DNA of 64,000 bases from Thermoanaerobaculia bacterium (GTDB lineage: Bacteria; Acidobacteriota; Thermoanaerobaculia; Multivoradales; UBA5704): NCBI GenBank assembly GCA_038250865.1, contig JBBSBW010000025.1:11809-75808 (forward strand). The letters are read 5' to 3'. How positions within the stretch are numbered: position 1 is the first letter of the stretch; each line of letters begins with the position of its first letter. Positions 1,413 to 21,139 of this stretch are shown piece after piece. Under the pieces are notes generated by a model that saw only the letters and a list, made by a program, of their open reading frames with translations, searched no databases and was not told the DNA's origin. The translations under genes and the position numbers were made by a program.

Positions 1413-1915
1413 AGCGAACGGTAATTGGTAAAGGTGAGTGGAACGTCCAAGACGTCCGGATCGAGGCCGCGCAGCATGGCGATCACGGTCTGCAGATCGT
1501 CGCGCGCCTTGCCCGAGACCCGCACGGTGTCGCCCTGAATCGAAGACTGGACCTTGATCTTCCGCGCCTTGATCTCGGCGACGATCTTCTTCGCGGTCTC
1601 GATCGGGATGCCCTGCTGGAAGGTGATCTTCTGCTTCGCCCGGCCGCCGCCCGAGGGCTCGACCTTGCCGTAGCGCGCCGACTTCAAGTTGATGCCGCGC
1701 TTGACCAGCTTCGTCTGGAGCACTTCAAGCGCCTGGGCGACGCTGAAATCGTCGGAGGCCTCAAGCACGATCTCCTCGCCTTCCAGCTCCAACGACGCCC
1801 CGGCATGCTTCAAATCGTACCGGGTGGAGATCTCTTTGGCGGCCTGCTGCACCGCGTTCTTGATCTCCTGAAAATCTACGGTGGAGACGATGTCAAAAGA
1901 GTTTTCGGCGGCCAT
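1409..1915 (-). CDS. yajQ: YajQ family (UPF0234) nucleotide-binding protein
   Basis: MAAENSFDIVSTVDFQEIKNAVQQAAKEISTRYDLK... is diagnostic of YajQ/UPF0234. The longer ORF upstream of this Met overlaps the neighbouring gene and is not needed. Confidence 0.85.
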   Translation of the reverse strand: MAAENSFDIVSTVDFQEIKNAVQQAAKEISTRYDLKHAGASLELEGEEIVLEASDDFSVAQALEVLQTKLVKRGINLKSARYGKVEPSGGGRAKQKITFQQGIPIETAKKIVAEIKARKIKVQSSIQGDTVRVSGKARDDLQTVIAMLRGLDPDVLDVPLTFTNYRSL

Positions 1916-1983
1916 GATTCGAGGGGGTCCTCTCGCGGAGGAAGTATACCCGCTTGCTTGTGCCAACGCGAACAAGCGGCTTC

Positions 1984-2676
1984 CTACCGCTCGTCGTCCC
2001 ATTTGATGCCGGAGGGCGCGGAGAAGGTGGTGCCGCGGCGGGGGATTTCGCGGTAGTCGGTCAGGTCGAAACGAGTCTGGTTCCCCTCGGAGTCGCGGTA
2101 GGAGAGCTGGACCAGGCGGCGGTTTCCGGCGGCGCCTTCGACGACCAGGATCGCATCTTTGATCGGCGAGATCTTGGCTTTCGGCGCGAGCGAGATCTCG
2201 ATCCGGCCGCCGTCGAGCGGCCGGGCCGCCGCCTTGTAGCGGGTTTTCAAGTCTTCGACCCCGAGCAGCAGCAGGTCGAGCCCCGGCTCGGTCTTGCGGT
2301 CGACGCCGTAGCGGCGCCCGGTCTTGTCCTTCGGATTCCAGGCCCAGGCGTTTCCGCCGCAGAGGAGGAAACTCTTCGGATACGGGTCGGAATAGTCCCA
2401 GCGCAGGCAGTCGGGGAGCGCGAGCGCGAGTTTGCCCGACTCTTTCTCGCCCGAGCTAAAGCCCGCCGGCACGTAGGTCTGGGTGAAAATCGCCTGCAAC
2501 GTTCCGGCCTCGACCAGATCGGCACGGACGGCGCGGAGAGACTCCCACGCATCGGGGCTCGGGGCGGACTCGCTTTCGAGCTGTTTCGGCTGGCGGTCTG
2601 GAGTCGGTTTCTGGGCCGAGAGGGTGGCCGGCGCGATCAGCGCCAAGATCAAAAAGAGGTGGCAACCTCGGGTCAT
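1984..2676 (-). CDS. LolA-like outer-membrane lipoprotein carrier / DUF-type periplasmic protein
   Basis: 230-aa product starting MTRGCHLFLILALIAPATLSA (signal peptide) with LolA-like length and composition. The ORF-track N-terminal extension (to 2829) is a spurious in-frame read-through. Confidence 0.6.
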   Translation of the reverse strand: MTRGCHLFLILALIAPATLSAQKPTPDRQPKQLESESAPSPDAWESLRAVRADLVEAGTLQAIFTQTYVPAGFSSGEKESGKLALALPDCLRWDYSDPYPKSFLLCGGNAWAWNPKDKTGRRYGVDRKTEPGLDLLLLGVEDLKTRYKAAARPLDGGRIEISLAPKAKISPIKDAILVVEGAAGNRRLVQLSYRDSEGNQTRFDLTDYREIPRRGTTFSAPSGIKWDDER

Positions 2677-4726: not shown

Positions 4727-5584
4727 CTACTTCTTCGCGTGGTCGTAAAAGCCGCGGCCGCTCTTGCGCCCCAAGCGGCCGGCGAGCACCATCTGCTTGA
4801 GCAACGGCGGCGGGGCGAAGCGCTTTTCGCGGTACTCCTCGAACATGATGTCAGCGATGAAGAGGGTCGTGTCCAGCCCGACGAAATCGAGCAGGGTGAA
4901 CGGCCCCATCGGGTAGCCGCAGCCGAGCTGCATCCCCTTGTCGATGTCCTCGACCGAACCCACCCCCTCTTCGAGCGCGCGGATCGCGTCGAGCAGGTAG
5001 GGGACGAGCAGCCGGTTGACGATGAAGCCCGAGTTGTCGCGCGCCGCGATCGGCTCTTTGCCGACCTTCCGGGCGAACTCGAACGCTGCGTCGAACGCCT
5101 CGTCGGAGGTGAGGATCGTGCGCACCACCTCGACCAGCTTCATCACCGGCACCGGGTTGAAGAAATGGAGGCCTACGAAGCGGTCCGGCCGCTTCGTGCT
5201 CATCGCGAGCTGGGTAATGGTGAGCGACGAGGTGTTGGAGGCGAAGATCGCCTCAGGTTTGACGATCTCGTCGAGCGCCGCGAAGGTCTTCTTTTTCTCC
5301 TCGACGTTTTCGACGATCGCTTCCACCACCAGATCGCAATCGGCGAGGTCGGAAAACTCGGTGGTGCCGGTCAAGTTGGCAAGCGCCGCATCGCGCGCAG
5401 CCGCGTCGAGCTTCCCCTTCTCGACCGCCTTGCCGAGGGAGCCTTGGATCCGCGCGAGCCCCTTGTCCAGGAACCCTTGGTTCACCTCGCGCACCACCGT
5501 CGTACAACCCGCTTTCGCCGCAATCTCGGCGATCCCGGCGCCCATCAGGCCGCAGCCCAGGACGCCCACCTTCTGAATAGCCAT
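4727..5584 (-). CDS. hbd: 3-hydroxybutyryl-CoA / 3-hydroxyacyl-CoA dehydrogenase
   Basis: MAIQKVGVLGCGLMGAGIAEIAAKAG (NAD-binding), ASNTSSL and GFIVNRLL motifs. GGAGGA RBS 5 nt upstream of the ATG at 5584. Confidence 0.9.
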   Translation of the reverse strand: MAIQKVGVLGCGLMGAGIAEIAAKAGCTTVVREVNQGFLDKGLARIQGSLGKAVEKGKLDAAARDAALANLTGTTEFSDLADCDLVVEAIVENVEEKKKTFAALDEIVKPEAIFASNTSSLTITQLAMSTKRPDRFVGLHFFNPVPVMKLVEVVRTILTSDEAFDAAFEFARKVGKEPIAARDNSGFIVNRLLVPYLLDAIRALEEGVGSVEDIDKGMQLGCGYPMGPFTLLDFVGLDTTLFIADIMFEEYREKRFAPPPLLKQMVLAGRLGRKSGRGFYDHAKK

Positions 5585-5654
5585 ATCCATCCTCCGGAAA
5601 GAATCCGGGCAGCGCCCGGGGAGAGCGGACTCTACCCGGGCGACGCTCCGTCCG

Positions 5655-7406
5655 CTACTTTTTGGGCTCCGGCTCCGGCACCGGCGCCTCTCCGATGGCG
5701 CCGGTCGCCCCGGTCGCCCCGGTCGAATACCCCGCCCGGTCGGAGACCGCCCACATCGAATCGACCATTGTGAGGCCGTTGAAAATGCCGTTGCTCGATT
5801 GGAAGGTCTCGAGCGCGTTCGGATTCGGCGGGTTCGCCTGGAGATAGCTCGACGCCCGGCCGGCGTCCGGCTTCTGACCGGGGTTCAACGGCGGCCAGGC
5901 GGCCCGGTGGTGGCAGTTCATGCAGTTGGTGGTGATCGGGTGCGAGGCGGCCAGCTCGATATAGGGGTTGTAGGCGACCGGCCACGCCGGTCCTTTGGTT
6001 CCCGGGGGAACGTAATAGTTTTCGTTCCCTTGCTGCTGCGTCGTTCCGTACGTCGTGGTGATCATGTAGTTCTTGTACGTCGTGTCGCCGCCGGGCACCG
6101 CGTTAGGACGATGCTTGCAGTAACGGCTGCTGGAGGGATCGGTGCAGGCGAAAGCGTCCGGATGCCACCAGGCCGACTGGAAGGTCCAATCCGACTGCTC
6201 TTTGGTGATCATGTGCATGGCGACCAGCGCCAGCGAGTCGCCCGCTTGAAACGCTCGGTTGTAGGTCCAATAGGCCGAGGCGTCGAGGATCGCGCGGTCG
6301 CAGGTCGACAGCTTGCCCAGATCGATGTCCGAATATTTTCGGCTGTAAAAGCGGTCGAGGGTGACCCGATCGCCATCGTAGGAATTCGGGCCGAGCGGCT
6401 TGCCGTTGGGGTCGAGCACGCCGTAAAGGAATTGCACCCTTTTTCGGTCCGGCGGTCCGGGAGGGCCGCTGGAGATCGCGACCGCCCGGGTCCACAGGTT
6501 CTGCATCTCGAAGCCGGCGTATTTGCCGTCGGCCGGCGAACCCGGCTTGTTGGCGTCCCAATCCCAGATGGGCAGGGCGGTGACGCTGGTGTATGTGGTG
6601 CCGCCGCCCGCGACCGGCCAAAGCATGACCTTGAGGACGATCGACGTGGCGGGAAACTGCTGAATGCTCGTCGACGGGCTCGTCTTCGGTGGCAACTGGG
6701 AGTCGAGAGCCGCGGCGTTGTACAGGTTCTTCAGGAGGATGTTATTCAGCGCGGACTGGTTGTAGCTCACGGCCGCTACCATGATGTCGCCGTTACTCTG
6801 AAAATTCTGGCCGTCCTTGAGGTTGTAAAGCTGCGGATTGGTGCCGGGGATCCTCTGTAGACAGTCCTTATAATTGCGGTTGTTGACGATCGCTTGATTC
6901 ACGCCATAGATCGGTGCCGGGTTGTTGATCGCGCCCACCCCGCCGATCGCCGCGTTGGCCTGGTTCTTGGCGTTGAGCGTCACCGGACGCAGGACCTCGG
7001 GCGCGGCCTCTCCCCCTTCGGCCAGCGAAGGTTTCCAGGGGTTGTATTGGAAGGGGAAGGCTTGGGTCGAAGTCCCCCAAGTCCGCCAGGTGGGGTCCTT
7101 CGCCGCGTTCGCCGCCTGGTTCAGACCCGCGAACAGGCAATAAGCGTGGAAGCGCATCCGAGGGCCCTGTCCTGGAGTCACCCAAGATTGAATCGTGCCG
7201 GAAGACTGCGGATAGTCGAAACCCGCGGGAAACTGCGCGGTGGGAGGCGGGGTCAAGTTGTCGCAAGCCACCGGGTCCGCCACCCTTTCGACCTTGGCAG
7301 CGGGGGGAGCCTCCTCCGCAACCGGCGGAACGGATTCTTTCGGGGCACAGGCGATCAACACGGCAAAAGTCGAGGCCACGGCGGCAACGCGGAGCAGGGA
7401 ATGCAT
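5655..7406 (-). CDS. Large secreted lipoprotein of unknown function with a single C-terminal CxxCH motif
   Basis: 583 aa. N-terminal MHSLLRVAAVASTFAVLIAC (lipobox-like LIAC). Gln/Asn/Pro-rich. ...TTNCMNCHHRAAWPP carries a CxxCH heme-c-type motif about 90 aa from the C-terminus. Confidence 0.6.
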   Translation of the reverse strand: MHSLLRVAAVASTFAVLIACAPKESVPPVAEEAPPAAKVERVADPVACDNLTPPPTAQFPAGFDYPQSSGTIQSWVTPGQGPRMRFHAYCLFAGLNQAANAAKDPTWRTWGTSTQAFPFQYNPWKPSLAEGGEAAPEVLRPVTLNAKNQANAAIGGVGAINNPAPIYGVNQAIVNNRNYKDCLQRIPGTNPQLYNLKDGQNFQSNGDIMVAAVSYNQSALNNILLKNLYNAAALDSQLPPKTSPSTSIQQFPATSIVLKVMLWPVAGGGTTYTSVTALPIWDWDANKPGSPADGKYAGFEMQNLWTRAVAISSGPPGPPDRKRVQFLYGVLDPNGKPLGPNSYDGDRVTLDRFYSRKYSDIDLGKLSTCDRAILDASAYWTYNRAFQAGDSLALVAMHMITKEQSDWTFQSAWWHPDAFACTDPSSSRYCKHRPNAVPGGDTTYKNYMITTTYGTTQQQGNENYYVPPGTKGPAWPVAYNPYIELAASHPITTNCMNCHHRAAWPPLNPGQKPDAGRASSYLQANPPNPNALETFQSSNGIFNGLTMVDSMWAVSDRAGYSTGATGATGAIGEAPVPEPEPKK

Positions 7407-7587: not shown

Positions 7588-7881
7588 ATGGACATGACCG
7601 AGAAAACCGTTTCCGTCTCAGAGCTCAAAGCCCACCTCTCCGAGTGCCTCCGCAGGGTGAAGGATGGCGAACGTTGGATAGTTACCGAGCGCGGCCGACC
7701 AGTTGCCATTCTTGGCCCCTCCCCGAACCACGGCGACGATCTCGACGGGCTCGCTGCTGCGGGCGCAGTTCGCCTGGGGAGTCGCCGTATGCCTGCAAAG
7801 CTCTGGGATCTTCCTCAACCTGAAGACCCTGGCGACACCGTCCGCCGAGCGGTTCTCGAAGAGCGAGCTGGGGGATGGTGA
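7588..7881 (+). CDS. Phd/YefM-family type II antitoxin
   Basis: TVSVSELKAHLSECLRRVKDGERWIVTERGRPVAIL is the Phd/YefM fold signature. Overlaps the downstream PIN gene (ATGGTGA). Confidence 0.8.
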   Translation: MDMTEKTVSVSELKAHLSECLRRVKDGERWIVTERGRPVAILGPSPNHGDDLDGLAAAGAVRLGSRRMPAKLWDLPQPEDPGDTVRRAVLEERAGGW

Positions 7882-8333
7882 TTTTCTGGGATACCTCCGC
7901 CGTCGTTCCCCTCCTGGTCGCTGAGAGCACTTCGCCGGCCATCACCGAGTTGGCCCGCCTCACCACGCTTCTCGTCTGGTGGGGCACGCCGATCGAGTGC
8001 CTGTCAGCCATCGCGCGCAGGGAGGGCGAGGCGAAGCTCACCCCAGAGGGTGCCGACCAAGCGCGTCGGCGACTGACTCTTTTGCGTGAAAATTGGAGCG
8101 AGATCCTTCCTTCGGAACTTGTGCGCGAAAACGCCGAACGCGCTTTGCTGCGGCATCCGCTCCGAGCGGCAGATGCCTTACAGCTCGGAGCGGCGCTCCG
8201 CTGGGCCGAGAACAGCCCACGAGGTCATCGCTTTCACTCCTTGGACGACAGGCTGACCGAAGCAGCGCGCAAAGAGGGTTTCGAGCTGGTCGACGCAACG
8301 AACTTCATCGTCGAACACCCTGCTGACTCGTGA
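7875..8333 (+). CDS. vapC: VapC-type PIN-domain toxin
   Basis: MVIFWDTSAVVPLLVAES... and a conserved acidic residue pattern typical of PIN ribonucleases. Coupled to the upstream antitoxin. Confidence 0.8.
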   Translation: MVIFWDTSAVVPLLVAESTSPAITELARLTTLLVWWGTPIECLSAIARREGEAKLTPEGADQARRRLTLLRENWSEILPSELVRENAERALLRHPLRAADALQLGAALRWAENSPRGHRFHSLDDRLTEAARKEGFELVDATNFIVEHPADS

Positions 8334-8349: not shown

Positions 8350-8748
8350 CTAGGGCAACGCCGGCAGCGAGTACTCGAAGTCGTACCCGTGCTTCCCACC
8401 TTCAATCAAGATGTGGAGGGTGCCGGAGATCCCCGCCAATTCGCCGGTGCCGGAATCGGGCACCACGTGTACCGCGAGGTCCGGCGTGCCGCGGGTCATG
8501 ATCCCGCGGTGATAGAGCGCGAACGTGCCTTGCCGCCCGGCGAGGGTGGCGGTCACCGTTTCGATAGCGACGTAGACCCCCGAACCCTCCGCGGCACCCG
8601 CGGTCAGCATCTGCCCGTTGCCGGTGCCTACGAGATCGCCGTGAAATTCTTTCTCGATCGACATGCGACCGAGGGTCGCGTCCTCCGCCGGACCGGCCAG
8701 CGGCAGCGGGTTGACCTTGACGTCGAATGCGCCCTTGGCGTGCTCCAT
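8350..8748 (-). CDS. DUF3224-family protein
   Basis: 132 aa, MEHAKGAFDVKVNPLPLAGPAEDATLGRMSIEKEFHGDLVGTGNGQM... Strong RBS GAGAGGAGAGGAAG before the ATG. The longer upstream ORF is rejected. Confidence 0.65.
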   Translation of the reverse strand: MEHAKGAFDVKVNPLPLAGPAEDATLGRMSIEKEFHGDLVGTGNGQMLTAGAAEGSGVYVAIETVTATLAGRQGTFALYHRGIMTRGTPDLAVHVVPDSGTGELAGISGTLHILIEGGKHGYDFEYSLPALP

Positions 8749-8962
8749 CTTCCTCTCCTCTCGGGGTGTCGTACGGCGTTCCCCTCCGTACAGTGGGGAT
8801 GCTATCAGGCGCACTTCAACCGGGATTTTTCGGCGCAGGGTCGGAAGATCATCCACGGAGTACGAGAAGGGATCGCGAGGCCGGCGACGGGACGAAGAGC
8901 AAGGGTTCGAATCACCGGAGGGCGACGACGGCGGGAGCGCCGACCGGCTAAGATGCCGTTCC

Positions 8963-9955
8963 ATGAACCGAGCACACCTTCTCGCCGGGGCGCTCGCGGT
9001 CGCCGCCTGGGTCGCACCGCTCGTGGCCCAAACTTCGGCGGTGGCTCCGGAGGCAACAGCCCAACCGACCGCCACACTTCAGATCACGCTGCTCGGTACC
9101 GGCAATCCGCGGCCTAGCCTGGAGCGATTCGGCCCGTCGATCCTGGTCGAAGCCGGCGCGCAGCGGGTGTTGATCGATGCCGGACGCGGCGCCTCGCAGC
9201 GGCTGTTCCAGATCGGCGGGCGCGATGCGTTGGTGAACATCGACGCGGTCTTCTTCACCCACCTGCACTCCGACCATGTGGTGGGCCTGCCGGACCTTTG
9301 GCTCACCAGCTGGATTTTCGGCCGCGCCAAGGCGCTCGAAGTGATCGGGCCTCCCGGAACGGCGGAAATGGCCGGCCATCTCGAACAGGCCTACGCCTGG
9401 GACATCGACGCCCGCGCCAAGGACGAGGGCCATCCCCGCGAAGGCGTTCGCCTGGCGGCGAAGAACGTGCAGCCGGGCGTCGTGTACGACCGGGACGGCT
9501 TGAAGGTGACCGCCTTCGCGGTCGATCACGGCAACCTTCTCAAGCCGGCCTACGGCTTCCGTATCGATTACCGAGGGCGTTCGGCGGCGTTTTCGGGCGA
9601 CACCCGATTCTTCGAGCCGCTCGTCGAGCAGGTCCAAGGCGTCGACGTGCTGGTCCACGAGGTGGTGAGCCCCGAGGTCGAACTCAAGCGCACGCTTGTC
9701 GAAGACCCGCACGCCGTGGAGGCGATCATCGCCCACCACACCACCCCCGAGCAGGCGGGCACGATCTTCAGCCGGGTCAAGCCGCGCCTGGCCGTCTATT
9801 CGCACATCGTCCCCTCGCCCACCACGGCGGAAGACCTGATCGGTCTGACGCGCCGCACCTACGCCGGACCGCTAGCGGTGGGCTACGACCTGATGACGAT
9901 CGTGATCGGCGACACGATCGAGGTCTATCCGCGAAAGACCACGGGCGACAACTAA
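8963..9955 (+). CDS. Secreted metallo-beta-lactamase-fold hydrolase
   Basis: Signal peptide MNRAHLLAGALAVAAWVAPLVAQ. MBL motif THLHSDHVVGL and later HxxD/H pattern. Confidence 0.8.
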   Translation: MNRAHLLAGALAVAAWVAPLVAQTSAVAPEATAQPTATLQITLLGTGNPRPSLERFGPSILVEAGAQRVLIDAGRGASQRLFQIGGRDALVNIDAVFFTHLHSDHVVGLPDLWLTSWIFGRAKALEVIGPPGTAEMAGHLEQAYAWDIDARAKDEGHPREGVRLAAKNVQPGVVYDRDGLKVTAFAVDHGNLLKPAYGFRIDYRGRSAAFSGDTRFFEPLVEQVQGVDVLVHEVVSPEVELKRTLVEDPHAVEAIIAHHTTPEQAGTIFSRVKPRLAVYSHIVPSPTTAEDLIGLTRRTYAGPLAVGYDLMTIVIGDTIEVYPRKTTGDN

Positions 9956-9969
9956 CCGGAGGTTCATAC

Positions 9970-10467
9970 GTGGCCTTGCCGACCGATTTGCTGAACGAAC
10001 TGGAAGAGATGCCGCAACAGTTGGAGCGAGCCCTTCGCCAATTACCGAGCGACCGGCTCGCCTGGAGTCCGGAGTCATGGGGCGGCTGTCCCAGCGAAAC
10101 GCTCTCGGCGCTCGAACAGGTATGCCACCTGCGCGACATCGAACAAGTCGGCTACCACCTGCGCATCCGGCGGATGCTGGACGAATCGAACCCCTCGCTC
10201 GAGTCCCTGGACAGCTACGAGATCGCCCAAGAGAGGCGCTACGGTTCCGACAACCTAGAAACAGCGCTCGAAGCCTTCCGCAGCGCAAGGCAGGCCACCG
10301 TCGAGCAGCTGCAAAACCTGACCGACGCTCAGCTCGCCCGAACCGGCGAGTTCGCCGAATACGGCCGGCTTACGCTACGGTCGCTGGTCCACTACCTGCG
10401 TAGCCACGACCAGCAACACCTGGCCGGAATCCAGTGGCTGGCGGGGAAGATCGCATCGCCCGAGTAG
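9970..10467 (+). CDS. DinB_2 / DinB-like (damage-inducible, four-helix bundle) family protein
   Basis: GTG start after a GGAGG RBS. LAWSPESWGGCPSETLSALEQVCHLRDIEQVGYHLRIRRML... fits DinB_2. Stop codon 1 nt before the tRNA-fragment repeat. Confidence 0.7.
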   Translation: MALPTDLLNELEEMPQQLERALRQLPSDRLAWSPESWGGCPSETLSALEQVCHLRDIEQVGYHLRIRRMLDESNPSLESLDSYEIAQERRYGSDNLETALEAFRSARQATVEQLQNLTDAQLARTGEFAEYGRLTLRSLVHYLRSHDQQHLAGIQWLAGKIASPE

Positions 10468-10468
10468 G

Positions 10469-10524
10469 GGTGCCGGAGGCGGGACTCGAACCCACATGAC
10501 CTTGCGGCCGAAAGATTTTAAGTC
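10469..10524 (-). repeat. attR-like partial copy of the 3' 56 nt of tRNA-Leu (direct repeat of 18071..18126; 4 mismatches)
   Basis: The minus-strand sequence GACTTAAAATCTTTCGGCCGCAAGGTCATGTGGGTTCGAGTCCCGCCTCCGGCACC matches the anticodon-loop-to-3'-end of the intact tRNA at 18072..18156 and lacks the 5' half. Confidence 0.85.
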
Positions 10525-11321
10525 TCGACACCGGAACAACCTAGCACAAGTGGGGAAAAACAAGCATAGGAAAACCTCAAGCGGGATAAGGGTTTTCTTG
10601 CGCCGGTGTTTTCTGGGCTGCTCTCATTTGTACCGTCTCAGGGGCACTCGAAAGGCACCTGCGGCACCTGAAAGGCACCTGGGAGGCACCCAGGGAATCG
10701 AGAGGAATCGGAACCCGGGGAAGGTATCCCGAGATCGGGAATCGCTCTCGACCACTGCCCAAGGGTGCCAAGAATGCCAAGGGTGCCAAGTTCTCCAAGG
10801 CACTGCGCGTGGCATCCTTGGCGCCTATCGGCTATGGGGCAAGCCCCGTGGAGCCATCGATCCGCCCAGAAGCGGCTAGTGGGAGGCGGAAGGGGGCGCG
10901 AGCGCCGGGGATAGGCTCGCGGGGACGACGAATGCTGCTCTGGCAGCGGAAGCAAAAGGCGGAGCAACCGGTTTCCCTTCCGGGTCATAGTGGGAACGGC
11001 GACGACGGTTCAAAGATGCTGGGAACCTCTCCCCCCTGGCGAATCGTCGCCACGGCGCGGACCTATCTCCAAGCGAAGCAGGGAGCTTTGGACATCGGCC
11101 CGCCTCTGTTTTGGAACGAATAGAGGCGCCGAAGCCCGCCGAGCTTGCGAGGCGAGCGTGCGTACCCCCCGGGTGGGGCTTCCTCTGCCCGACCCTCTCT
11201 TTCCTCATTTTCGCTATGCTTCTGGCGTTCAAGCGCGGCTAGGTCTGGCCACCGAACGCCGGTTCCCGTACCGGAGCGCCGCGCTGTTGTTCTCTTCTGC
11301 GGGGCGCCTTCGGGGGGTGCT

Positions 11322-12044
11322 ATGGCCAAGAAATGGTTCAGTGAGTGGTGGCAATCCTTCTCCCTCGGCGTGGGTGTCACCGTGGCGGTAGGCATTATCG
11401 CTGCCGCCTGGAAGTCTTGCCCCTACCTTTGGAGATGGCTACACGAAGGGGACGGAGAAGTAGCTCACCGGGCGGTTTTCATGTTGGCCGCACTACTCTT
11501 CTGTTTGGGGTTTTTTCAGTTCTTTAGGCCGCTGCGAGTTCGAGTAGTGCCAATACCAATCCCAGCGAATGAGACTCATCTGATAGTTCAAAACCTCGGA
11601 GGAATGAACGCATTTCGAGCGACGATTGAAATTCTGGAGATTCGTCTAGGTCTGGTCAAGCATAATCCTCGGCGAACCATTTGGAATCTTGGTTGGGCGA
11701 GAAACGAAGACCGCTCGAAATATCTCCAAGCCCACCAGAGCGGCAACCTAAATATAGCTACAGCATATGTTCGGCCTGCTCAGTATAGTCATGAAAGCTC
11801 TCAAATAGTCGGCGTTTATTTAATGCCGGCAAATGGCGAAGAGGGTGAGCTTGTTATGTATTCGGGAGATGTGGGCCAAACAGATATTGACATAAAGGTT
11901 ACCGTAATCTCAGATGATCCCAAGATAGTGTCATTTCTGTTACAACCTGTTCGCCCTTTCGTTGGACGTTTCACTATTAAGGGGAGCAAGGAGGACGGCC
12001 TTTCGATTCATCACTTCGTGCGCAAAAAGAAGACTAAGCCGTGA
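11322..12044 (+). CDS. Hypothetical membrane protein (2 N-terminal TM helices + ~170-aa soluble domain), island cargo
   Basis: MAKKWFSEWWQSFSLGVGVTVAVGIIAAAW ... FMLAALLFCLGFFQFF, then a soluble domain. Lower GC than the surroundings. The upstream ORF-track extension is rejected. Confidence 0.5.
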   Translation: MAKKWFSEWWQSFSLGVGVTVAVGIIAAAWKSCPYLWRWLHEGDGEVAHRAVFMLAALLFCLGFFQFFRPLRVRVVPIPIPANETHLIVQNLGGMNAFRATIEILEIRLGLVKHNPRRTIWNLGWARNEDRSKYLQAHQSGNLNIATAYVRPAQYSHESSQIVGVYLMPANGEEGELVMYSGDVGQTDIDIKVTVISDDPKIVSFLLQPVRPFVGRFTIKGSKEDGLSIHHFVRKKKTKP

Positions 12045-12170: not shown

Positions 12171-13280
12171 TTAACTCTCCCCACCCGTCTTTGAGTCCCC
12201 CGGCCCTATTTGGGGCCATGTCCAACTGGAGGAGCCGGTGGGCCTGAAAGCCTTGAAACCGAGCTTCTCCTTTCCTCTCCAGAGTGTTCGCTTCGCCACC
12301 CCAGCCGCATTAGCCTCTTCAAGGATTTCAGCTGTTGGGCGCGGCCCGTCTGCGAGCGTCACGCGGAGGAAATCGATCGCTTCATCGAGCGCGCCCGGAC
12401 TTTCGGGCGTAGGTGAAGGGGCCGGCTCCGCTAGCAGATCGGCGGCTGTCAGATCGCTCTCTCCGTCTTTCCAGGCAAAGCTACCGGCGGAGTCGATCTC
12501 GAATTCAAGCGAAGCGGACTTGGTTGGTCCGATGTTCGACTTGTGAAGGACCAGCCCCGAGCGCGAACCATCGGGAGTGCGACCGACGAGCATTACCGTC
12601 CGCGCAATCGCCGTGAACGCTACGGAGCCCGAACCGCGATACCCGACCTTGGCACTTCCTCCGCCTTTGTTTAGGTGCCGAATAATGCAGACCGAGCAGT
12701 CATTGCGAGCCGCAATCTGAACAAGCAGCCCGACCGCTTCGCGTACGTGATTATCTCGGAACAGATCGACTTTCGACGGCAGTAGCGAAGTTATCGGGTC
12801 AACGAGAAAAAACTTTGCCTCGATCCGTTTGATTTCTGCTTCGATCAAACCCGCGCCGTGCGAGTCGAGAGTGAGTCCGGCACCCGCTTCGCAGTCGATC
12901 ACGTGGACGCGGGAGAGGTCCGCGCCCATGCCCTCCATACGTGGTCGCATGGTGTCGCCGGCTCCGTCTTCGAGCGACAGCAGAAGGCTTGAACAGGGCT
13001 CGAACGGTTCGGCGCCTGGCAGGCCATCTCCGCGCGAAAGTGCCGCAGCGATGGCGGCACCGATGAATGATTTCCCGCAGCCGGGATCGCCTTCAAGGAT
13101 CGAGAGCTTGCCTAGTGCCAAGCGAAATTCCCAGAGCCAGCGAATCGGCTCCGCAGTGACGGTATCGAGGGATCGCGCTAGGTGTGGGCAAGGTTCCACC
13201 TCCCCAAGGCACTGCTCGGACTCCGGGGCCGCCATAGTGGTTCGCGATCGTGCGGTTTCTCGGGCGGTGCATTTCGTCAC
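12171..13280 (-). CDS. AAA_25/RecA-like (RepA / P4-primase-associated type) replication ATPase with C-terminal wHTH-like tail
   Basis: Walker A LSILEGDPGCGKSFIGAA, Walker B FFLVDPITSL, CIIRHLNKGG... 4-nt overlap with the upstream HTH gene. Start may be the internal Met at 13235. Confidence 0.7.
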   Translation of the reverse strand: MTKCTARETARSRTTMAAPESEQCLGEVEPCPHLARSLDTVTAEPIRWLWEFRLALGKLSILEGDPGCGKSFIGAAIAAALSRGDGLPGAEPFEPCSSLLLSLEDGAGDTMRPRMEGMGADLSRVHVIDCEAGAGLTLDSHGAGLIEAEIKRIEAKFFLVDPITSLLPSKVDLFRDNHVREAVGLLVQIAARNDCSVCIIRHLNKGGGSAKVGYRGSGSVAFTAIARTVMLVGRTPDGSRSGLVLHKSNIGPTKSASLEFEIDSAGSFAWKDGESDLTAADLLAEPAPSPTPESPGALDEAIDFLRVTLADGPRPTAEILEEANAAGVAKRTLWRGKEKLGFKAFRPTGSSSWTWPQIGPGDSKTGGES

Positions 13281-13702: not shown

Positions 13703-14416
13703 CTACGCCTTGGAGTGCTCTGGCGAATAGGTCGCCAGTACAGCGAGCATGGGCTCCGTTAGCGGAGGGAAAGGCACGGTACGCGCTGGAAGCTTCAGAG
13801 AAGGGGGAACCCGCCACAGCTCGGCCGACTTGATTAGCCGATGCTTCTCGACCGAGTGCCGGATTGCTTCCGCATAGGCTAGAAACTCCTCGAAGTGTTT
13901 TGAGACAAAGACAAAGGGATCGAACTGCGCAGGGTCTTGAGCGATATTTCTGGGTACACCGTGGGCATTCGCCAACGAGGAAACGGCAAGGTCGAGATGA
14001 GCCACAGGACGAAATCTCTTCCAAATATTCTGAAGAGTGGTCGGCGATGCGGAGCCAGGCTTTAATGTGGCAATGATCCCGAATGCGTGTTTGGCTTTCA
14101 TTTTCACCTGCGGATGGTGCTCCGCGGCACTGAGCAGGATCGCGAGAGTTGTTGTCGCTACCCAAGTACTCTGAACGGCTCGCTGCACATCCTCCTCCAG
14201 CACCTTCGGACCTGGCGCCGTCTGCAAGTAAGGGGCAAGGAATCCAATGGACGATAGGTCGAGGTTCTCCGGGTTCTTCAATATGCCCACAAGGTAACTG
14301 GCGACAAACTCTAAACGCGCTCTTTCGTCATCGGGGTAGGTCATAATCGCCAGCGTGAGCACGGGGGCCACTGAAGCCAGTTTTCCATCACGCCCGAGAA
14401 TTGGAAGCTCCGGCAT
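13703..14416 (-). CDS. Hypothetical protein (island cargo, low GC)
   Basis: 238-aa ORF starting MPELPILGRDGKLASV... No recognisable motif. Confidence 0.4.
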   Translation of the reverse strand: MPELPILGRDGKLASVAPVLTLAIMTYPDDERARLEFVASYLVGILKNPENLDLSSIGFLAPYLQTAPGPKVLEEDVQRAVQSTWVATTTLAILLSAAEHHPQVKMKAKHAFGIIATLKPGSASPTTLQNIWKRFRPVAHLDLAVSSLANAHGVPRNIAQDPAQFDPFVFVSKHFEEFLAYAEAIRHSVEKHRLIKSAELWRVPPSLKLPARTVPFPPLTEPMLAVLATYSPEHSKA

Positions 14417-14580
14417 ACGCACGCCCTCCCGCAAGTGCCCGCAAAGGACGAGGGAGATGCACGGCGGGCCGGTGCGGGGGCCGGCTATTCGGGGATCAGG
14501 CTAGCCGCGCGAGCTTGATTCTATACTGTCCCGCACAGGTGGGAATCTTGCCGGCGTGATTCAGCATAGGGAGAGATGCA

Positions 14581-15555
14581 ATGAGAACGGGAAAGCTCTT
14601 TCTTATTCTCGGCCTTTTCTGCGCACCACTCGGCGCGCAGTCTCCAAAGGATCGAGCAGAGAACCTCGGAACTTGTCTCTCGGGCAAGTACCCTTCGCTT
14701 TGTCGATATGAACTGCTTTCCCCGGAAGATCTCGCGCGTGCTAGAGGTGCCGAGAGGCTGCAAAATCTTGAAACTTGTCTGACGGGCCTCTACCCTAGCC
14801 TGTGCAAACACGGCTTGCTCTCGGCCGATGAGACAGCCCGGGTTGACGAAGCCGAACGCCGAGAGAACCTTAAAACCTGTCTGACGGGCCTCTACCCTAG
14901 CCTGTGCAAAAGGAGTCTCCTCTCACCAACCGAGCACGCCAAAGTAACAGAGGCTGAGCGAATTGAATACCTTAAAACTTGCTTGTCAGGCCAGTTCCCG
15001 TCACTGTGCGACCATTCAAGGTTGTCGGCGGAAGAACTGAGCCGAGCTGTTCAGGCTGAGCAGACAGCTGCTGCTGACAAGAAAAGCGAGAGCCAAAGGT
15101 CAGTCCAAGCACCTCGTGCGGCGCAGCCCTGCGAAGAAGGACATTGGATTGCCAGTATCTCCGACGATGGCGAGATCGTCATTCTGGACGATAGGAGCAT
15201 CTGGGAAGTCGATTCGCTCGGCACAATAGCCTCATCGCTATGGCTCCCATATACGGCGATCTTGGTTTGTGAAGGAAGACTCATTAACACTGACGACAAT
15301 GAAGTGGTGTCTGCCGAACGCATTGAGCCTGATTCCCGTCATTCAGGCAATGGCCGCCGATTTGAAGTTCAGGCTGCTATAGATGACGAGACTTTCGTTA
15401 TCAACGGTAAAATATTCAAGGCACAGACGGCCTGCTATGGAATTTCAAGGGGAGACGAGGTTCTCTTTGTTCAGGGAAACGCAAGCGTAGATTGCGCTAC
15501 AGCAGCCTTCGTGGTGCTACCTAACTCGGAGAAATGCGAGGTCTGGTGCGAGTAA
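14581..15555 (+). CDS. Secreted protein with four tandem ~30-aa Cys-containing repeats (TCL[ST]G.[YF]PSLC...) and a C-terminal ~150-aa Cys-containing domain
   Basis: Signal peptide MRTGKLFLILGLFCAPLGAQS. Repeats ENLGTCLSGKYPSLCRYELLSPEDLARARGAERLQ / NLETCLTGLYPSLCKHGLLSADETARVDEAERRE / NLKTCLTGLYPSLCKRSLLSPTEHAKVTEAERIE / YLKTCLSGQFPSLCDHSRLSAEELSRAVQAEQ. 33-nt exact DNA repeats at 14786 and 14879. Confidence 0.6.
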   Translation: MRTGKLFLILGLFCAPLGAQSPKDRAENLGTCLSGKYPSLCRYELLSPEDLARARGAERLQNLETCLTGLYPSLCKHGLLSADETARVDEAERRENLKTCLTGLYPSLCKRSLLSPTEHAKVTEAERIEYLKTCLSGQFPSLCDHSRLSAEELSRAVQAEQTAAADKKSESQRSVQAPRAAQPCEEGHWIASISDDGEIVILDDRSIWEVDSLGTIASSLWLPYTAILVCEGRLINTDDNEVVSAERIEPDSRHSGNGRRFEVQAAIDDETFVINGKIFKAQTACYGISRGDEVLFVQGNASVDCATAAFVVLPNSEKCEVWCE

Positions 15556-16020: not shown

Positions 16021-17151
16021 TCAGTTAACCGGAGAGTTAACCGTGGGCGCACCCGATCCGCCCCCGGCTTCCTTCCCTCCGAAGGGGCCGGCGATCGTCT
16101 CAGGATCAATCGGGCCGAATGTAGCAATCGCCGCCCGCTCGACCACCTGGCGCGCGCGGGTAGAGCCCAGGTGCGTATAGCGGGCAACCATCGCCAGGGT
16201 CTTGTGCCCGAGCAGCTCGCGCAGCTCGCCGAGCGTTCCGCCCGCTTCGAGAAACGCACTCGCGGCAAGGTGGCGGAGATCATGGAACCGGAGCCCCGGG
16301 AGCCCCGCGCGTTGGCAGGCCGACAGCCACGCCCTCCGCGGGAAATCCGGAAACCGATCCGGCGATTCCCCGGGGATTGCGAACAGGAACACCGTACCGG
16401 GGGCCAGCGCTTCGAGCCGGGCGCGAACGATCTCTAACGCCGGCCCGACAAGGTGCAGCCGGCGGCGGTCGCCGTTCTTCGTGTTCTCGGCGATGGCCAC
16501 GCCCCACGCGAGTTCAAGATCGCCGCGACGGAGCCCGAGTAGCTCGCCCTGGCGCCCACCGGTAGCGAGTGCGAGCGTAGCGAGATCGGCGAGCCTTGGA
16601 TCGACCGCCCGGCAGGCGGTGAGCAGCCGCGCCCGTTCCTCGCTCGATACCTTAGGGAGCCGTCCCCGTGGCTCCCGCGGTCGGCGCACCTTGCGGCAGG
16701 GGTTCGCCGAGATCAAACCCGCGTCGCGCTCGCAGTAGGAGAAGAACCGCGACAGGCTCGCCAGGAACCGAACGCGAGTCGCGGGGCCAAGGGGCTTGCC
16801 GCTTGGGGAGTCACCCTCGGCGAGTGCGCCGACCGCCGCCGAGATCTCGCGGGGTGTCACCCTTTCCAGGTCAATCCCTTTGAATCGATCGGTCCACCAT
16901 TCCAGCTTGCGGATATCGAGCGGACTCCGGAGAACCGCGGCACGATAGGCGGCGATCGCATTCTCGAAGCTCACGGGACCGCCAGCCGGTAGTTTCCCGA
17001 GCTTGCGCACCTCGGTCTCGACTTCCGCCGCCCATGCCTTCGCCTCTGCGAGGGTCGAGAACTGCCGCGCCCGGTCTCGGCCCGCGACGCGACACCGCGC
17101 GAGCCATGCAACGGTGCCGCCTTTGAGGAGTCGCTTTCGATATTGGGCCAT
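16021..17151 (-). CDS. int: Tyrosine-type site-specific integrase/recombinase
   Basis: C-terminal catalytic motifs ...HDLRHLAASAFLEAGGTLGELRELLGHKTLAMVARYTHL (R..HxxR..Y). N-terminal SAM-like arm/core-binding region. Downstream of and co-oriented with tRNA-Leu. Confidence 0.9.
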   Translation of the reverse strand: MAQYRKRLLKGGTVAWLARCRVAGRDRARQFSTLAEAKAWAAEVETEVRKLGKLPAGGPVSFENAIAAYRAAVLRSPLDIRKLEWWTDRFKGIDLERVTPREISAAVGALAEGDSPSGKPLGPATRVRFLASLSRFFSYCERDAGLISANPCRKVRRPREPRGRLPKVSSEERARLLTACRAVDPRLADLATLALATGGRQGELLGLRRGDLELAWGVAIAENTKNGDRRRLHLVGPALEIVRARLEALAPGTVFLFAIPGESPDRFPDFPRRAWLSACQRAGLPGLRFHDLRHLAASAFLEAGGTLGELRELLGHKTLAMVARYTHLGSTRARQVVERAAIATFGPIDPETIAGPFGGKEAGGGSGAPTVNSPVN

Positions 17152-17817: not shown

Positions 17818-18071
17818 GGGATTGTTCCCCTTGCTCGGCAAGGCGTCGGGGGAGGGCTGTTATCCCTTCTCCGGCGCCGTTTTTGTTTCAGGGGGGGCGG
17901 AGCCAATCTCCGCCGCCGTCCCTGTTCTGCGGGCGGCAAGTCGAAAACCGGATCGGGGGACCGCGCGGGGAGGCGGTAGTAAGACGCAATCCTTCCCTCT
18001 GCGGCACCTGAAAGGCACCTGGAAGGAAAAGCAGGGAGGGAAGGATTAGGCTAAGTGTATGAATCCAAAAG

Positions 18072-18156
18072 GTGCCGGAGGCGGGAATTGAACCCGCATG
18101 ACCTTGCGGCCGAAGGATTTTAAGTCCTCTGCGTCTGCCATTTCGCCACTCCGGCA
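18072..18156 (-). tRNA. tRNA-Leu (anticodon UAA), class II with long variable arm
   Basis: Minus-strand GCCGGAGTGGCGAAATGGCAGACGCAGAGGACTTAAAATCCTTCGGCCGCAAGGTCATGCGGGTTCAATTCCCGCCTCCGGCACC. 7-bp acceptor stem, anticodon loop CTTAAAA, 17-nt variable arm, T-arm GGGTT/CCCGC. Confidence 0.85.
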
Positions 18157-18261: not shown

Positions 18262-19059
18262 ATGATGTCGCCCATGCGAACACCGATCTTCCAGGTTGAC
18301 GCCTTCACGACCCGCCGATTCGCCGGCAACCCCGCCGCCGTGATGCCGATGGCCGGCTTTCTGGCGGATGCGACGATGCAGGCCATCGCGGCCGAGAACA
18401 ATCTCTCCGAGACCGCTTTCCTGGTGCCCGAAGGGGGCGACTATCGTCTCCGCTGGTTCACGCCCGCCGCCGAGGTGCCGCTCTGCGGCCATGCGACGTT
18501 GGCCAGCGCCGCGGTGGTCCTGGAGCGCCTGGAGCCCGAACGCCGCCAGGTGGTCTTCCACACGGCGAGCGGGCCGCTCACCGTCCGCCGCGCCGAAACG
18601 GGTTACGTCATGGACTTCCCCGCCCGCCCCGCCGAGCCGGTCCCGACTCCGCCCGAGTTCAGCGAAGCGCTGGGCGTCGTTCCGCTCGAGGTCCGGGTCA
18701 ACGACTTCAACTACCTGGCGGTGCTCGACAGCCCGCAGATCGTGCGCAACCTGGCCCTCGATTTCGCGGCGATCACCCGCCTGGATCGCCCCGGAATGAT
18801 CGTCACCGCGGCGGGCGACGAGGGCTACGACTTCATCAGCCGCTACTTCGCCCCCGCCAAGGGAGTCCCGGAAGATCCGGTGACCGGCTCAGCGCACTGC
18901 GTCCTGGCGCCCTACTGGGCTCACAGGCTAAACAAGACGGAGTTTCGCGCCTATCAGGCCTCGCGGCGCGGCGGCGAGGTGGGCTGTCGGCTGGTTGGGG
19001 ATCGGGTCGAGCTGGCAGGGAGTTGCGTGTTCTATATGGAGGGGGAGGTGGAGGTCTGA
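18262..19059 (+). CDS. PhzF-family (phenazine biosynthesis-like) isomerase
   Basis: [24 protein letters not shown]...[21 protein letters not shown]...CGHATLASA is the PhzF/DAP-epimerase-like signature. Confidence 0.85.
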
Positions 19060-19138
19060 GGAGGGCTGTCGGGGTCGCTCCCAAGCGCCTGGGTTACACT
19101 GTCGCGACTTTAGACCCCAGAATCGAAGAGGAGGACGG

Positions 19139-21139
19139 ATGGACGCTCCCGAATCGAAGTCTCTTCCGGAGAACGCCTACCAACCGCTGGCCCCCGGCGA
19201 AACGTATTCGCCGATGGTGCCCGCTACCTCGGCTCCGCCCGAGGCGACCTGGCGGTCGGTCGGTTGGGGCCTGGCGCTCTGTATCTTGTTTACCGTCGCC
19301 TCGGCTTATTCGGGGTTGAAAGTCGGCCAGGTGATGGAGGCGTCCATCCCCATCTCAATTCTGGCGATCGGCTTGGCGCGGGTCTACTCGCGGCGCTCCA
19401 CGGTGCTTGAAAACGTCATCATGTCGGGCATCGGCGGCACTTCGGGCGCGATGGTTGCGGGCGCGATCTTCACCCTTCCCGCCCTCTATATCTTGAATCT
19501 CGACCCCCATCCGGTGCAGACGACGTTCATCTGCCTGGCGGGCGGCGCGCTCGGTGTGCTGTTCCTGATTCCACTTCGCCGCTACTTCGTGCGCGAGATG
19601 CACGGCCAGCTGCCCTATCCGGAGGCCACCGCGATCACCGAGGTTCTCGTGACCGGCGAGAAGGGGGGTTCGCAGGCTGCGTTGCTGCTCCAGGCCACGG
19701 GGATCGCGGCGGTTTACGACTTTTTCGTCACCACCTTCCAGGTCTGGAAAGAGACCCTCGATTTCCAGTTCATCGGGGTGGTGAAGGCGATCGGCGACAA
19801 GGCCAAGGCGGTGCTTCGGTTCGACGCGATCGCGTTCATCCTCGGCCTCGGCTACGTGATGGGCCTGCGCTCCTCAATGATCCTGTGCGCCGGGGGCGTG
19901 GTGTCGAACTTGGTGCTGGTGCCGTTGATCTGGATGATCGGCCGCCATTTCCCCGACGTGGTCTATCCGGGGACCAAAGCGATCGCCGAGATGTCCGCCA
20001 ATGAGATCTTCCGCAGCTACGTCCGGTTCATCGGGGTCGGCGCGATCGCGACCGCGGGGATCATCGGAATCATCAAGTCGCTGCCGATCGTGGTCGGCTC
20101 GTTCTCGATCGCGGCGCGCGCGTTTAGGAAGGGCGAAGATGCGAGCCAGGAGCGCACCGACCGCGACATCTCGGTGGGCCTCATGCTCGCCGGAGTGATC
20201 GTCTCGGCTCTTGCCGCGGGGATCTTCTTCAACTCGCTTGGCGCCTCGCTGCTGGTCGTCGTCATCGGCCTTGGGCTCACGCTCCTCTTCTCGTTCTTCT
20301 TTGCCTCGGTCGCGGCCAACGCCATCGCCACCACGGCGCGGAATCCGGTCTCCGGCATGACGATGCTGACCATCATCATTTCCTCCGTCGTGCTGCTCCG
20401 CTTCGGTCTCACCGGCACCACCGGCATGTTCTTCGTCATGGCGATCGCGGGCGTCGTCTGCACCGCGCTGTCGGTCTCGGGGCAGACGATCACCGACTTG
20501 AAGACCGGCTACTGGCTCGGCTCAACTCCCGCCACCCAGGAGAAGGTCAAGTTCTTGGGCGTGTTCGTCTCGGCAATCACCGTGGCGGCGACCATCATGC
20601 TGCTCGCCAAGGCGTTCCAGTTCGGCGAGGCGATACCGGGCGATCCGCGCCAGGTGCTGGTCTCGCCGCAGGCCTCGATCATGAAGGCGCTGGTCGAAGG
20701 CTTCATGAGCCACCAGCCGATCGCCTACATTCTGTTCGGCGCGGGCGCGATGATTGCGCTCGCGATGGAGATGCTCGGCGTGCCGGCGCTGATCTTCGCG
20801 CTCGGCATGTACCTGCCGCTGGAGCTGAACTCCCCCGCTCTCGTCGGCGGCTTCCTCGCCCATTTCATCGAGAAGCGCTCGCGCACCGTGGGCGGCGAGG
20901 GAGGGAGGTCGATGCGCGAGCGCGGCGTGATCATCGCCTCGGGCCTGATGGCGGGCGGCGCGCTCGGAGGGGTGTTCGGCGCGGCGTTCCGGCTGTTTCC
21001 CTGGTACTCGGAGGACAAGATCAAGCTGCCGTTCTACGACAACGACCCGGTGTCGCAATCCGTTTCGGCGCTACTCTTCATCGCCCTCTGCGTCTACGTC
21101 TGGGTGAGCGCCGTGCGCGAGAAGAAAGTGGCCAAATGA
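19139..21139 (+). CDS. OPT-family oligopeptide transporter
   Basis: 666-aa polytopic membrane protein with OPT-family length and composition. GAGGAGGA RBS before the ATG at 19139. The upstream ORF-track extension is rejected. Confidence 0.8.
   Translation: MDAPESKSLPENAYQPLAPGETYSPMVPATSAPPEATWRSVGWGLALCILFTVASAYSGLKVGQVMEASIPISILAIGLARVYSRRSTVLENVIMSGIGGTSGAMVAGAIFTLPALYILNLDPHPVQTTFICLAGGALGVLFLIPLRRYFVREMHGQLPYPEATAITEVLVTGEKGGSQAALLLQATGIAAVYDFFVTTFQVWKETLDFQFIGVVKAIGDKAKAVLRFDAIAFILGLGYVMGLRSSMILCAGGVVSNLVLVPLIWMIGRHFPDVVYPGTKAIAEMSANEIFRSYVRFIGVGAIATAGIIGIIKSLPIVVGSFSIAARAFRKGEDASQERTDRDISVGLMLAGVIVSALAAGIFFNSLGASLLVVVIGLGLTLLFSFFFASVAANAIATTARNPVSGMTMLTIIISSVVLLRFGLTGTTGMFFVMAIAGVVCTALSVSGQTITDLKTGYWLGSTPATQEKVKFLGVFVSAITVAATIMLLAKAFQFGEAIPGDPRQVLVSPQASIMKALVEGFMSHQPIAYILFGAGAMIALAMEMLGVPALIFALGMYLPLELNSPALVGGFLAHFIEKRSRTVGGEGGRSMRERGVIIASGLMAGGALGGVFGAAFRLFPWYSEDKIKLPFYDNDPVSQSVSALLFIALCVYVWVSAVREKKVAK

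Follow-up and report, generated by a model that had tools for sequence, protein, structure and literature searches.

What kind of protein is encoded by a gene that joins a secretion leader to four tandem repeats, each with a pair of cysteines, and that lies on an integrated island? The question is raised by positions 14581-15555 (+ strand) of a 64,000-nt stretch of DNA from a Thermoanaerobaculia bacterium (GenBank assembly GCA_038250865.1, contig JBBSBW010000025.1, positions 11,809-75,808 of the forward strand), referred to here as the window. The gene, taken from the list of open reading frames (ORFs), has an ATG start and encodes 324 amino acids (aa; the coordinates include the stop codon). 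A Shine-Dalgarno-like AGGGAGAG at 14568-14575 ends 5 nt before the start, and a terminator scan was negative. A search of 5.8 billion clustered proteins returned 342 relatives at E<=1e-3, none of which is usefully named. We propose that the product is probably a Sec-exported, non-enzymatic periplasmic binding scaffold that is stapled by disulfides and carries beta domains as partner-binding or anchoring modules.

By sequence, the first residues, MRTGKLFLILGLFCAPLGA/QS, have the look of a typical Sec leader. A Sec-type signal peptide of residues 1-19 (14581-14637) is predicted from direct reading and from the leaders of relatives, with the cut most likely after LGA. A hydrophobic leader (median 27 aa) was found in 111 of 114 full-length relatives, in agreement with the earlier sequence-only reading of the window, which had described the protein as exported. 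Behind the leader, a repeat search of the sequence found four DNA copies at exactly 102-nt spacing, which gives a unit of 34 aa; the sequence-only reading had the number of copies right but put the unit at about 30 residues. Repeat 1 (14647-14748, Cys32/Cys41) was placed by this register and by invariant C, G, L and C columns, and repeat 2 (14749-14850, Cys66/Cys75), repeat 3 (14851-14952, Cys100/Cys109) and repeat 4 (14953-15054, Cys134/Cys143) follow in the same register. Each unit indeed carries a cysteine pair, as had been claimed, with C-x8-C starting at residues 32, 66, 100 and 134. The array is followed by a capping helix (to about residue 173) and a low-confidence Ala/Lys/Ser-rich linker (together 15055-15129), and then by what had been described as a single 150-aa C-terminal domain. 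That region is present, but it consists of two separable beta domains, the first of which also occurs alone or in other architectures. Domain a (residues 184-249, 15130-15327) is a small beta domain with a Cys184/Cys230 pair, and domain b (residues 259-324, 15355-15552) has four invariant cysteines and a VWCE end in the family alignment. The six additional cysteines that had been counted beyond the repeat array are C184, C230, C285, C305, C319 and C323. All of these features are on the + strand.

The fold was predicted by AlphaFold2 (AF2). The model of the full protein (46 sequences) had a mean predicted local distance difference test score (pLDDT) of 87.7, with 95-98 across the repeats, and the model of the repeat module alone (30 sequences) had a pLDDT of 94.5 and a predicted template modelling score of 0.78. 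In these models, five long helices are linked by 13-residue loops. Each unit is predicted to form one ~21-residue helix, from L[ST]xxE to TCLxG, and then a 13-residue return loop that holds two single-turn helices (YPxLCxHxLL), while the fifth helix (residues 150-173) caps the array and is followed by a drop of pLDDT to 56 at residues 171-180. The C-terminal part is predicted as two beta domains, with strands at 185-247 (pLDDT about 90) and 260-323. Foldseek comparison of the AF2 model, a check proposed by the sequence-only reading, gave no match below E=0.1 for the full model, either in the PDB (best E=0.14, template modelling (TM) score about 0.1) or in BFVD (best E=0.11). The best match of the repeat module in the PDB was the TAL effector dHax3 (E=3.1, probability 0.03, TM 0.12/0.06, root-mean-square deviation 14 A), which was returned because of the amino-acid term, not the shape. 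The C-terminal domains were also considered as SH3-like or TnsB-barrel folds and set aside, as the matches were weak (TM about 0.5 to a 58-61-aa fynomer, E about 3).

No model in Pfam, NCBIfam, PHROGs or PADLOC matched the repeat protein. The repeat is therefore not a known domain in these collections, as the sequence-only reading had supposed, and no match to a Sel1, TPR or adhesin-repeat family was found that would speak against it. When 46 members were compared with Pfam, only sub-threshold, repeat-driven matches were obtained, with TAL_effector in 1 of the 46 at 0.004. CsoSCA_C (25/46 members), DUF3195 and PRONE were rejected as repeat noise, since the inspected matches were below the cut-off, short and on the repeat. 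A literature search on motif strings found nothing relevant. The repeat is widespread and uncurated; it belongs to the broad class of "helical solenoid scaffold" units, and no PDB entry matches the unit geometry predicted for it.

The relatives fall into a long architecture of ~325-338 aa (leader, four 34-aa repeats, domain a and domain b) and a short architecture of ~255 aa that ends after domain a. Acidobacteriota members come from the Holophagales (63% identity), Thermoanaerobaculia, Terriglobales and Acidobacteriaceae, and betaproteobacterial members from Ralstonia, Cupriavidus, Ramlibacter, Curvibacter, Sulfuricella, Rhodocyclales, Nitrosomonadales and Usitatibacter. The number of cysteines from the first repeat on is even in 114 of 115 members, being 10 in the short form and 14 in the long one. 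Together with the leader in 111 of 114 relatives, and with the loss of cysteines in leaderless forms of domain a described below, this pattern points to a protein that is exported and oxidised. Near-invariant positions of the unit are A, E, E, N, L, C, L, G, Y, P, L, C, L, E and V, and the variable ones are scattered along the helix. Judged from the alignment, the conservation is of a structural kind (Asn, Gly, Pro, hydrophobic residues and Cys) and shows no catalytic-looking constellation.

At the DNA level the copies of the repeat are 50-58/102 identical, except for repeats 2 and 3, which are 68/102 identical. The latter pair has a perfect 33-nt identity between 14776-14808 in repeat 2 and 14878-14910 in repeat 3. 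The tract had been noted in the sequence-only reading and is real, but its positions had been given as 14786 and 14879, off by 10 and 1. Because repeats 2 and 3 are only 35/69 identical outside the tract, the perfect run is not a chance event (about 1e-4 by our own estimate). Tandem Repeats Finder reported nothing for the array, whose DNA copies are too divergent for it at 50-68/102 identity. Array counts across the family rest on about 120 listed relatives of the 342, the index comparison on 115 and the leader survey on 114. Of these 120, which come from Acidobacteriota and Betaproteobacteria, nearly every one has exactly four repeats spaced by 34 aa. For members less than 60% identical, the nearest neighbour of a repeat in another member has the same index in 76, 57, 83 and 73 of 115 cases (repeats 1 to 4), and each index has its own consensus across the orthologous family. 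These position-specific signatures argue that the four-unit array is old and fixed, not young. Repeats 2 and 3 are the most similar pair across the family (mean 61%), and in the window repeat 3 carries the TGLYPSLC of repeat 2 where the close relatives P0002, P0003 and L008 have AGT[FY][PA][TS]LC. The 33-nt tract is thus a short local gene conversion from repeat 2 (donor) to repeat 3 in the window lineage, and only that event is recent.

The sequence-only reading had seen the array as evolutionarily young or under concerted evolution, which would make it a fast-evolving surface or adhesin-type array with homogenised repeats. The 33-nt tract fits such an array, as do the 2-9 copies found in the wider repeat family and the near-identical repeats of Nitrosomonadales L021, P0121, P0122, P0129 and P0171. 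In the orthologous group, however, the number is constant at four, the individual repeat positions are conserved across phyla, and the DNA identities apart from repeats 2 and 3 are 50-58/102. We consider a homogenised adhesin-type array highly unlikely here, and an old array of four fixed units is preferred. Homogenisation does occur in some lineages: in a Nitrosomonadales metagenome-assembled genome (L021, 5941-6678), a single residue separates repeats 2 and 3, and three residues separate repeats 3 and 4.

Domain a is a separate, widespread orphan domain with the motif GHWI..V..DG.II.LEDGS.WEVD..D...S.LWLP...I..C..LINTDD.E.V.A. A profile search returned 268 relatives, almost all of them short "hypothetical proteins", and there was no PDB sequence match and no NCBIfam or Pfam model for it. 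It occurs alone behind a leader in proteins of 84-120 aa (Dyella, Oleiagrimonas, Legionella gratiana, Rhodoferax and others), and behind a different beta domain, in some cases with a PG_binding_1-like segment (21 bits, slightly under the cut-off). In Terracidiphilus (L038) it stands behind eight Sel1 repeats (Sel1 E=6e-54) in place of the module of the window protein. Forms in Planctomycetes, Cyanobacteria and Mycobacterium look cytoplasmic, having neither leader nor cysteines. Stand-alone copies, too, come from variable regions, with ParE close by or inside a cluster of GmrSD, reverse transcriptase and helicase genes. Domain b, on the other hand, is limited to the long architecture and is missing from the ~255-aa relatives. 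A possible homology of domain b to the N-terminal beta domain of L025, L033, L034, L035 and L039 was rejected (hhalign probability 5%, 15 columns).

The repeat itself is found far beyond the orthologous family. The module profile was run exhaustively with HMMER against 1.84 billion representatives, and matches reached E<=1e-3 in 675 clusters, E<=1e-10 in 363 and E<=1e-30 in 139. In this wider family a protein has 2-9 copies, and the array is often C-terminal. A census of fusion partners by Pfam on 76 longer representatives found PG_binding_1 in 7, T5orf172/MUG113 in 3, and Sel1, NAGPA and Peptidase_C14 in 2 each, with single cases of Trypsin_2, TonB_2, FGE-sulfatase, PEGA, FliL, SH3_3, DUF3761, TPR, Pkinase, DnaJ and Bflower; the majority of the partners are associated with the envelope. 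A cysteine spacing of C-x5-C or C-x6-C was found in variant units, namely in P0193 and in a 32-aa unit of L038. In this Terracidiphilus metagenome-assembled genome, a protein at ~1483-2480 (+ strand) has five 32-aa variant repeats (NVQACGYGIGQCDEGLLSPAEAAQVSVVRHRM, C-x6-C) and lies ~2.3 kb upstream of the protein with Sel1 repeats and domain a (4750-6231); here, then, two separate, neighbouring proteins carry a variant of the repeat and the C-terminal domain. After the repeats, the same variant protein and P0123 have a C-terminal motif, G(Y)YR(R/G)(D/N)GTYV(R/Q)G(H/Y)YRS, that recurs in unrelated members. A recurrent membrane-anchored architecture was also seen in P0124, P0126, P0127, P0134 and P0180. 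It begins with an N-terminal GFxGLSSLVSDVD motif and a transmembrane segment, continues with a conserved IRYCLAE...DRFN..V.DYNSRC...YR region, and ends in 4-6 C-terminal Cys-pair repeats, with a PG_binding_1-like segment before the repeats in all but P0127. These five appear to be an unannotated family of their own.

Taken together, the repeat module behaves as an interchangeable scaffold, being replaced by a Sel1 array in L038 and appended to many envelope domains. This behaviour, the likely export and oxidation of the protein and the structural character of its conservation lead us to favour the disulfide-stapled periplasmic binding scaffold. In the model that we propose, the N-terminal half would be a rigid four-unit alpha-solenoid, in which each unit is a predicted helix L[ST]xxE...V..AERRENLxTC followed by the return loop LxGxYPxLCxxxx. 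The disulfide would most likely be formed within the repeat, where the cysteine at the helix end and that in the loop would staple the loop to the helix, and the invariant Asn possibly ties adjacent units. The two beta domains would be held by one and two disulfides, respectively. The solenoid would bind one partner, and the beta domain or domains would bind or anchor a second one in the periplasm or the cell wall, with the same repeat reused as an interaction module in many envelope proteins. The recurrent location of the gene and its relatives in mobile or variable regions suggests an accessory, possibly envelope-protective role, and the island gene could give its host an envelope-level benefit, for example by neutralising an incoming cell-wall-targeting protein.

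Several points weigh against this model. A few fusion partners in the wider repeat family (T5orf172/MUG113, DnaJ and Pkinase) are usually cytoplasmic, although the proteins in question possibly span the membrane. No constant gene partner that might indicate a pathway was found across the homologue loci. PADLOC and PHROGs were silent for the gene and its cargo neighbours on the island, so that the protective role is argued from genomic neighbourhood only. The analysis defines two uncatalogued modules, a helical repeat of 34 residues with a Cys pair and a beta domain of ~65 residues. Bacteria of soil and freshwater commonly have them, and their confident prediction makes them ready to be curated as families and taken to structure determination. 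The repeat is joined to peptidoglycan-binding, TonB-type, protease and other envelope domains, and knowing its ligand would annotate hundreds of proteins.

One alternative is that the 34-aa units are divergent homologues of transcription activator-like effector (TALE) repeats and perhaps bind nucleic acids. Sequence searches of the PDB returned TAL effectors only, at E=3e-16 (PthA) with the single protein in phmmer and down to E=6e-33 with the family profile. The two repeats have the identical period of 34 aa and share a PxLCxxxxL[ST]PE junction and LET, and members of the window family occur in Ralstonia and Cupriavidus. With a hidden Markov model (HMM) of the single unit, 0 of 100,000 natural 34-mers outscored TALE, with a small margin (23.2 vs 23.5-29.4 bits). 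However, individual TALE stretches score 5-13.5 bits (independent E-values 0.3-160), and these add up to the total because near-identical TALE repeats are matched in overlapping registers. The unit HMM (466 units) aligns just PsLCkhslLtpeel with PVLCQAHGLTPEQV, 14 residues at 6.8 bits per copy, and leaves the other 20 residues, including the region of the repeat-variable diresidue (RVD) loop, unaligned. Shuffled TALE units in five tandem copies reach up to 63 bits, and 0.1-0.4% of them equal the real unit against the four-repeat HMM; natural 34-mers in five tandem copies reach up to 68 bits, and 0.07-0.11% equal TALE against the four-repeat profile. The scale of such inflation is illustrated by P0233 (1511 aa), a junk-like array with a 68-aa period that matches the module profile at E=4e-34. 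BurrH (4cja/4cj9), a true TALE-like protein in the PDB copy searched, was not matched by the window family at E<=10, while TALE repeats match it at 1e-105 in a control. Neither Pfam, with its one TAL_effector match among the 46 members, nor the Foldseek comparison with dHax3 described above favours the TALE reading.

The published definition of TALE-like proteins (de Lange et al. 2015, PMC4787788) asks for 33-35-residue tandem repeats with Val7, Gly14 and Leu29 (X6VX6GX13LX4-6) and for a pair of alpha helices in every repeat, separated by a loop that specifies the base. It further includes hypervariable base-specifying residues between conserved positions, and similarity in sequence and fold to TALE-likes at large (TALE and BurrH). 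The length agrees (exactly 34 aa in each of the four units), and the Leu preceding the second Cys corresponds to Leu29, the sole match among the three signature residues. In the HMMER alignment the G14/G15 of TALE stand opposite the E/R of the near-invariant AERRENL, V7 stands opposite a gap, and at no position of the window-family unit is a V followed by G seven residues later. AF2 predicts one continuous ~21-residue helix where the RVD loop would fall, and in the entropy profile the variable positions (3-4, 8, 12, 17, 20-23 and 26-34) show no isolated hot spot. The repeats of Xanthomonas TAL effectors and those of the window protein thus share the period and a 14-residue junction, PxLCxxxxL[ST]PE vs PVLCQAHGLTPEQ, but the window unit lacks the Gly-Gly loop, the hypervariable pair and the two-helix hairpin; TALE proteins are delivered by type III secretion, whereas the window protein has a Sec leader and four repeats only. 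On the unit alignment, the null distributions, the BurrH control, the Foldseek comparison and the published definition we rejected membership in the TALE family, and a TALE-like identity is extremely unlikely. TAL effectors and the window repeat share a helix-capping junction motif with no demonstrable homology, and the database match is an artefact of repeat amplification. There is a very slim chance that the junction motif and the period reflect common ancestry, with this widespread exported repeat of soil Acidobacteriota and Burkholderiales (Ralstonia and Cupriavidus among them) as a sister or source lineage of the Xanthomonas TALE repeats; if true, this would point to the unknown origin of TALE. 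The case also shows in detail how HMMER E-values are inflated by tandem repeats, here to between 1e-16 and 1e-33 against TAL effectors from a 14-residue motif. The P0233 array is of low complexity and probably translated satellite-like DNA, and its 22 weak "TCLxxxYP" copies are a false positive by repeat summation.

Other known helical repeats resemble the window protein more in design than in sequence. The Helicobacter cysteine-rich proteins (Hcp) HcpB and HcpC are exported binding scaffolds of short helical tandem Sel1-like repeats (SLR), each locked by one disulfide (PMC3851747), and the window protein shares the design of an exported helical tandem repeat, with an invariant cysteine pair per unit, even cysteine counts and a leader that would fit a disulfide in each repeat. 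The period of TPR is likewise 34 aa, and a Sel1 array substitutes for the module ahead of domain a in L038, which would suit a divergent Sel1-like or TPR-type protein of the Hcp kind. Against this, no Sel1 (PF08238) or TPR match was found at E<=10 in the six members with complete listings; both families are missing from the 25 Pfam families shown for 46 members; and Hcp or SLR chains are absent from the PDB sequence searches and the Foldseek lists. Furthermore, Hcp repeats form an alpha/alpha hairpin that builds a superhelix, whereas the window unit is predicted as one long helix and a return loop per 34 aa with the cysteine pair inside the unit (C-x8-C). A divergent Sel1-like or TPR-type protein of the Hcp kind is accordingly highly unlikely. 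TPR is also a helical tandem interaction scaffold, and the two repeats occur together in P0237, but the window repeat has no Pfam TPR match, one helix per unit, and an invariant cysteine pair and Asn. The DUF1311/LprI family shares an exported helical domain with a cysteine pair, and weakly matched LprI-type proteins are neighbours of the homologues in Ralstonia and Cupriavidus; LprI, in contrast, has no tandem 34-aa periodicity, and PF07007 gave no match at E<=10 in P0076, P0063, P0103, P0049, P0123 or the window protein. The "DUF1311 domain-containing" label that one source gives to P0076 was not reproduced by Pfam LprI at that threshold. Thus, the window repeat lies outside the TALE, Sel1/Hcp, TPR and LprI families. 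A different alternative is that the cysteine pairs are functional redox or metal sites, for thiol-disulfide exchange or metal binding, instead of structural staples. C-x8-C recurs four times at even intervals, in many cases with a His behind it (LCxH), and this is compatible with such sites, as is the periplasmic location. On the other hand, the His is variable (entropy 1.7-2.1 bits), a CxxC-type motif is absent, Pfam gave no thioredoxin or metal-domain match, and the variant C-x5-C or C-x6-C spacing fits a staple better than a defined site. Redox or metal sites are thus very unlikely, and the disulfide-stapled scaffold remains our preferred reading.

The gene is cargo of a 7.66-kb island integrated at a tRNA gene, together with two more unannotated genes, and the sequence-only reading was right to place it on a mobile element beside low-GC genes. 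The island is bounded by 56-nt direct repeats (93% identical). The proximal repeat (18071-18126) is the 3' 56 nt of the integration target tRNA-Leu(TAA) (18071-18155, - strand), and the distal one (10469-10524) is a displaced copy of the tRNA-Leu 3' half, 52/56 identical. A tyrosine integrase (16021-17151, - strand; Pfam Phage_integrase 1.4e-19, phrog_1 1.2e-54) lies beside the intact tRNA, a replication-type ATPase of the AAA_25, primase/helicase-like kind (12171-13280, - strand; Pfam 3.5e-22, PHROG DNA polymerase/primase families) is also present, and the GC content is 0.55-0.60 at 11-16 kb and about 0.66 outside. The island therefore has the integrase, the tRNA-derived flanking repeats and the deviant composition of a genomic island, and is not unusual among tRNA-integrated islands with a tyrosine integrase; it is only 7.66 kb long and has three unannotated cargo genes. 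The other two cargo ORFs, of 243 aa (13703-14434, - strand) and of up to 299 aa with a hydrophobic segment (11145-12044, + strand), had no match in Pfam, PHROGs or PADLOC, and tblastn found no relatives of them in any homologue locus.

Just within both ends of the island is a second direct repeat of 28 nt (10659-10686 and 17999-18026, 96% identical), and a 9-nt tandem (CCAAGGGTG/CCAAGAATG) lies near the distal end at 10759-10794; these are possibly arm sites of the integrase or what is left of the att region. At 10467, right next to the displaced tRNA fragment, is the end of a DinB-family gene. The host genes that flank the island are ordinary, and those on the + strand include a PIN-domain protein (weak match, 7875-8333), a metallo-beta-lactamase-fold protein (8663-9955), a PhzF-like protein (18262-19059) and an OPT oligopeptide transporter (18995-21139).

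The backbone of this island is not common to any homologue locus, and the homologues are located in other mobile or variable regions. The Ralstonia homologue is on an island with integrase, resolvase, AAA_15/21 and Mrr genes, and the Cupriavidus homologue is alongside HNH and resolvase genes; both adjoin exported LprI-type (weak matches) and PDZ proteins. The Ramlibacter homologue is near KAP NTPases and IS66, and that of the Acidobacteriaceae is within a cluster of hypothetical genes with a DnaD/HTH_36 gene. In the Burkholderiaceae genomes of Ralstonia mannitolilytica (L004, 4106-9028) and Cupriavidus necator (L057, 5899-8759), the homologue is of the short form and comes after an Xre-type HTH gene with divergent transcription, one or two exported LprI-type proteins (weak matches) and a PDZ or YbjN-like protein. 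This segment, part of an island with a resolvase and with HNH or Mrr nucleases, is possibly a set of exported proteins under common regulation.

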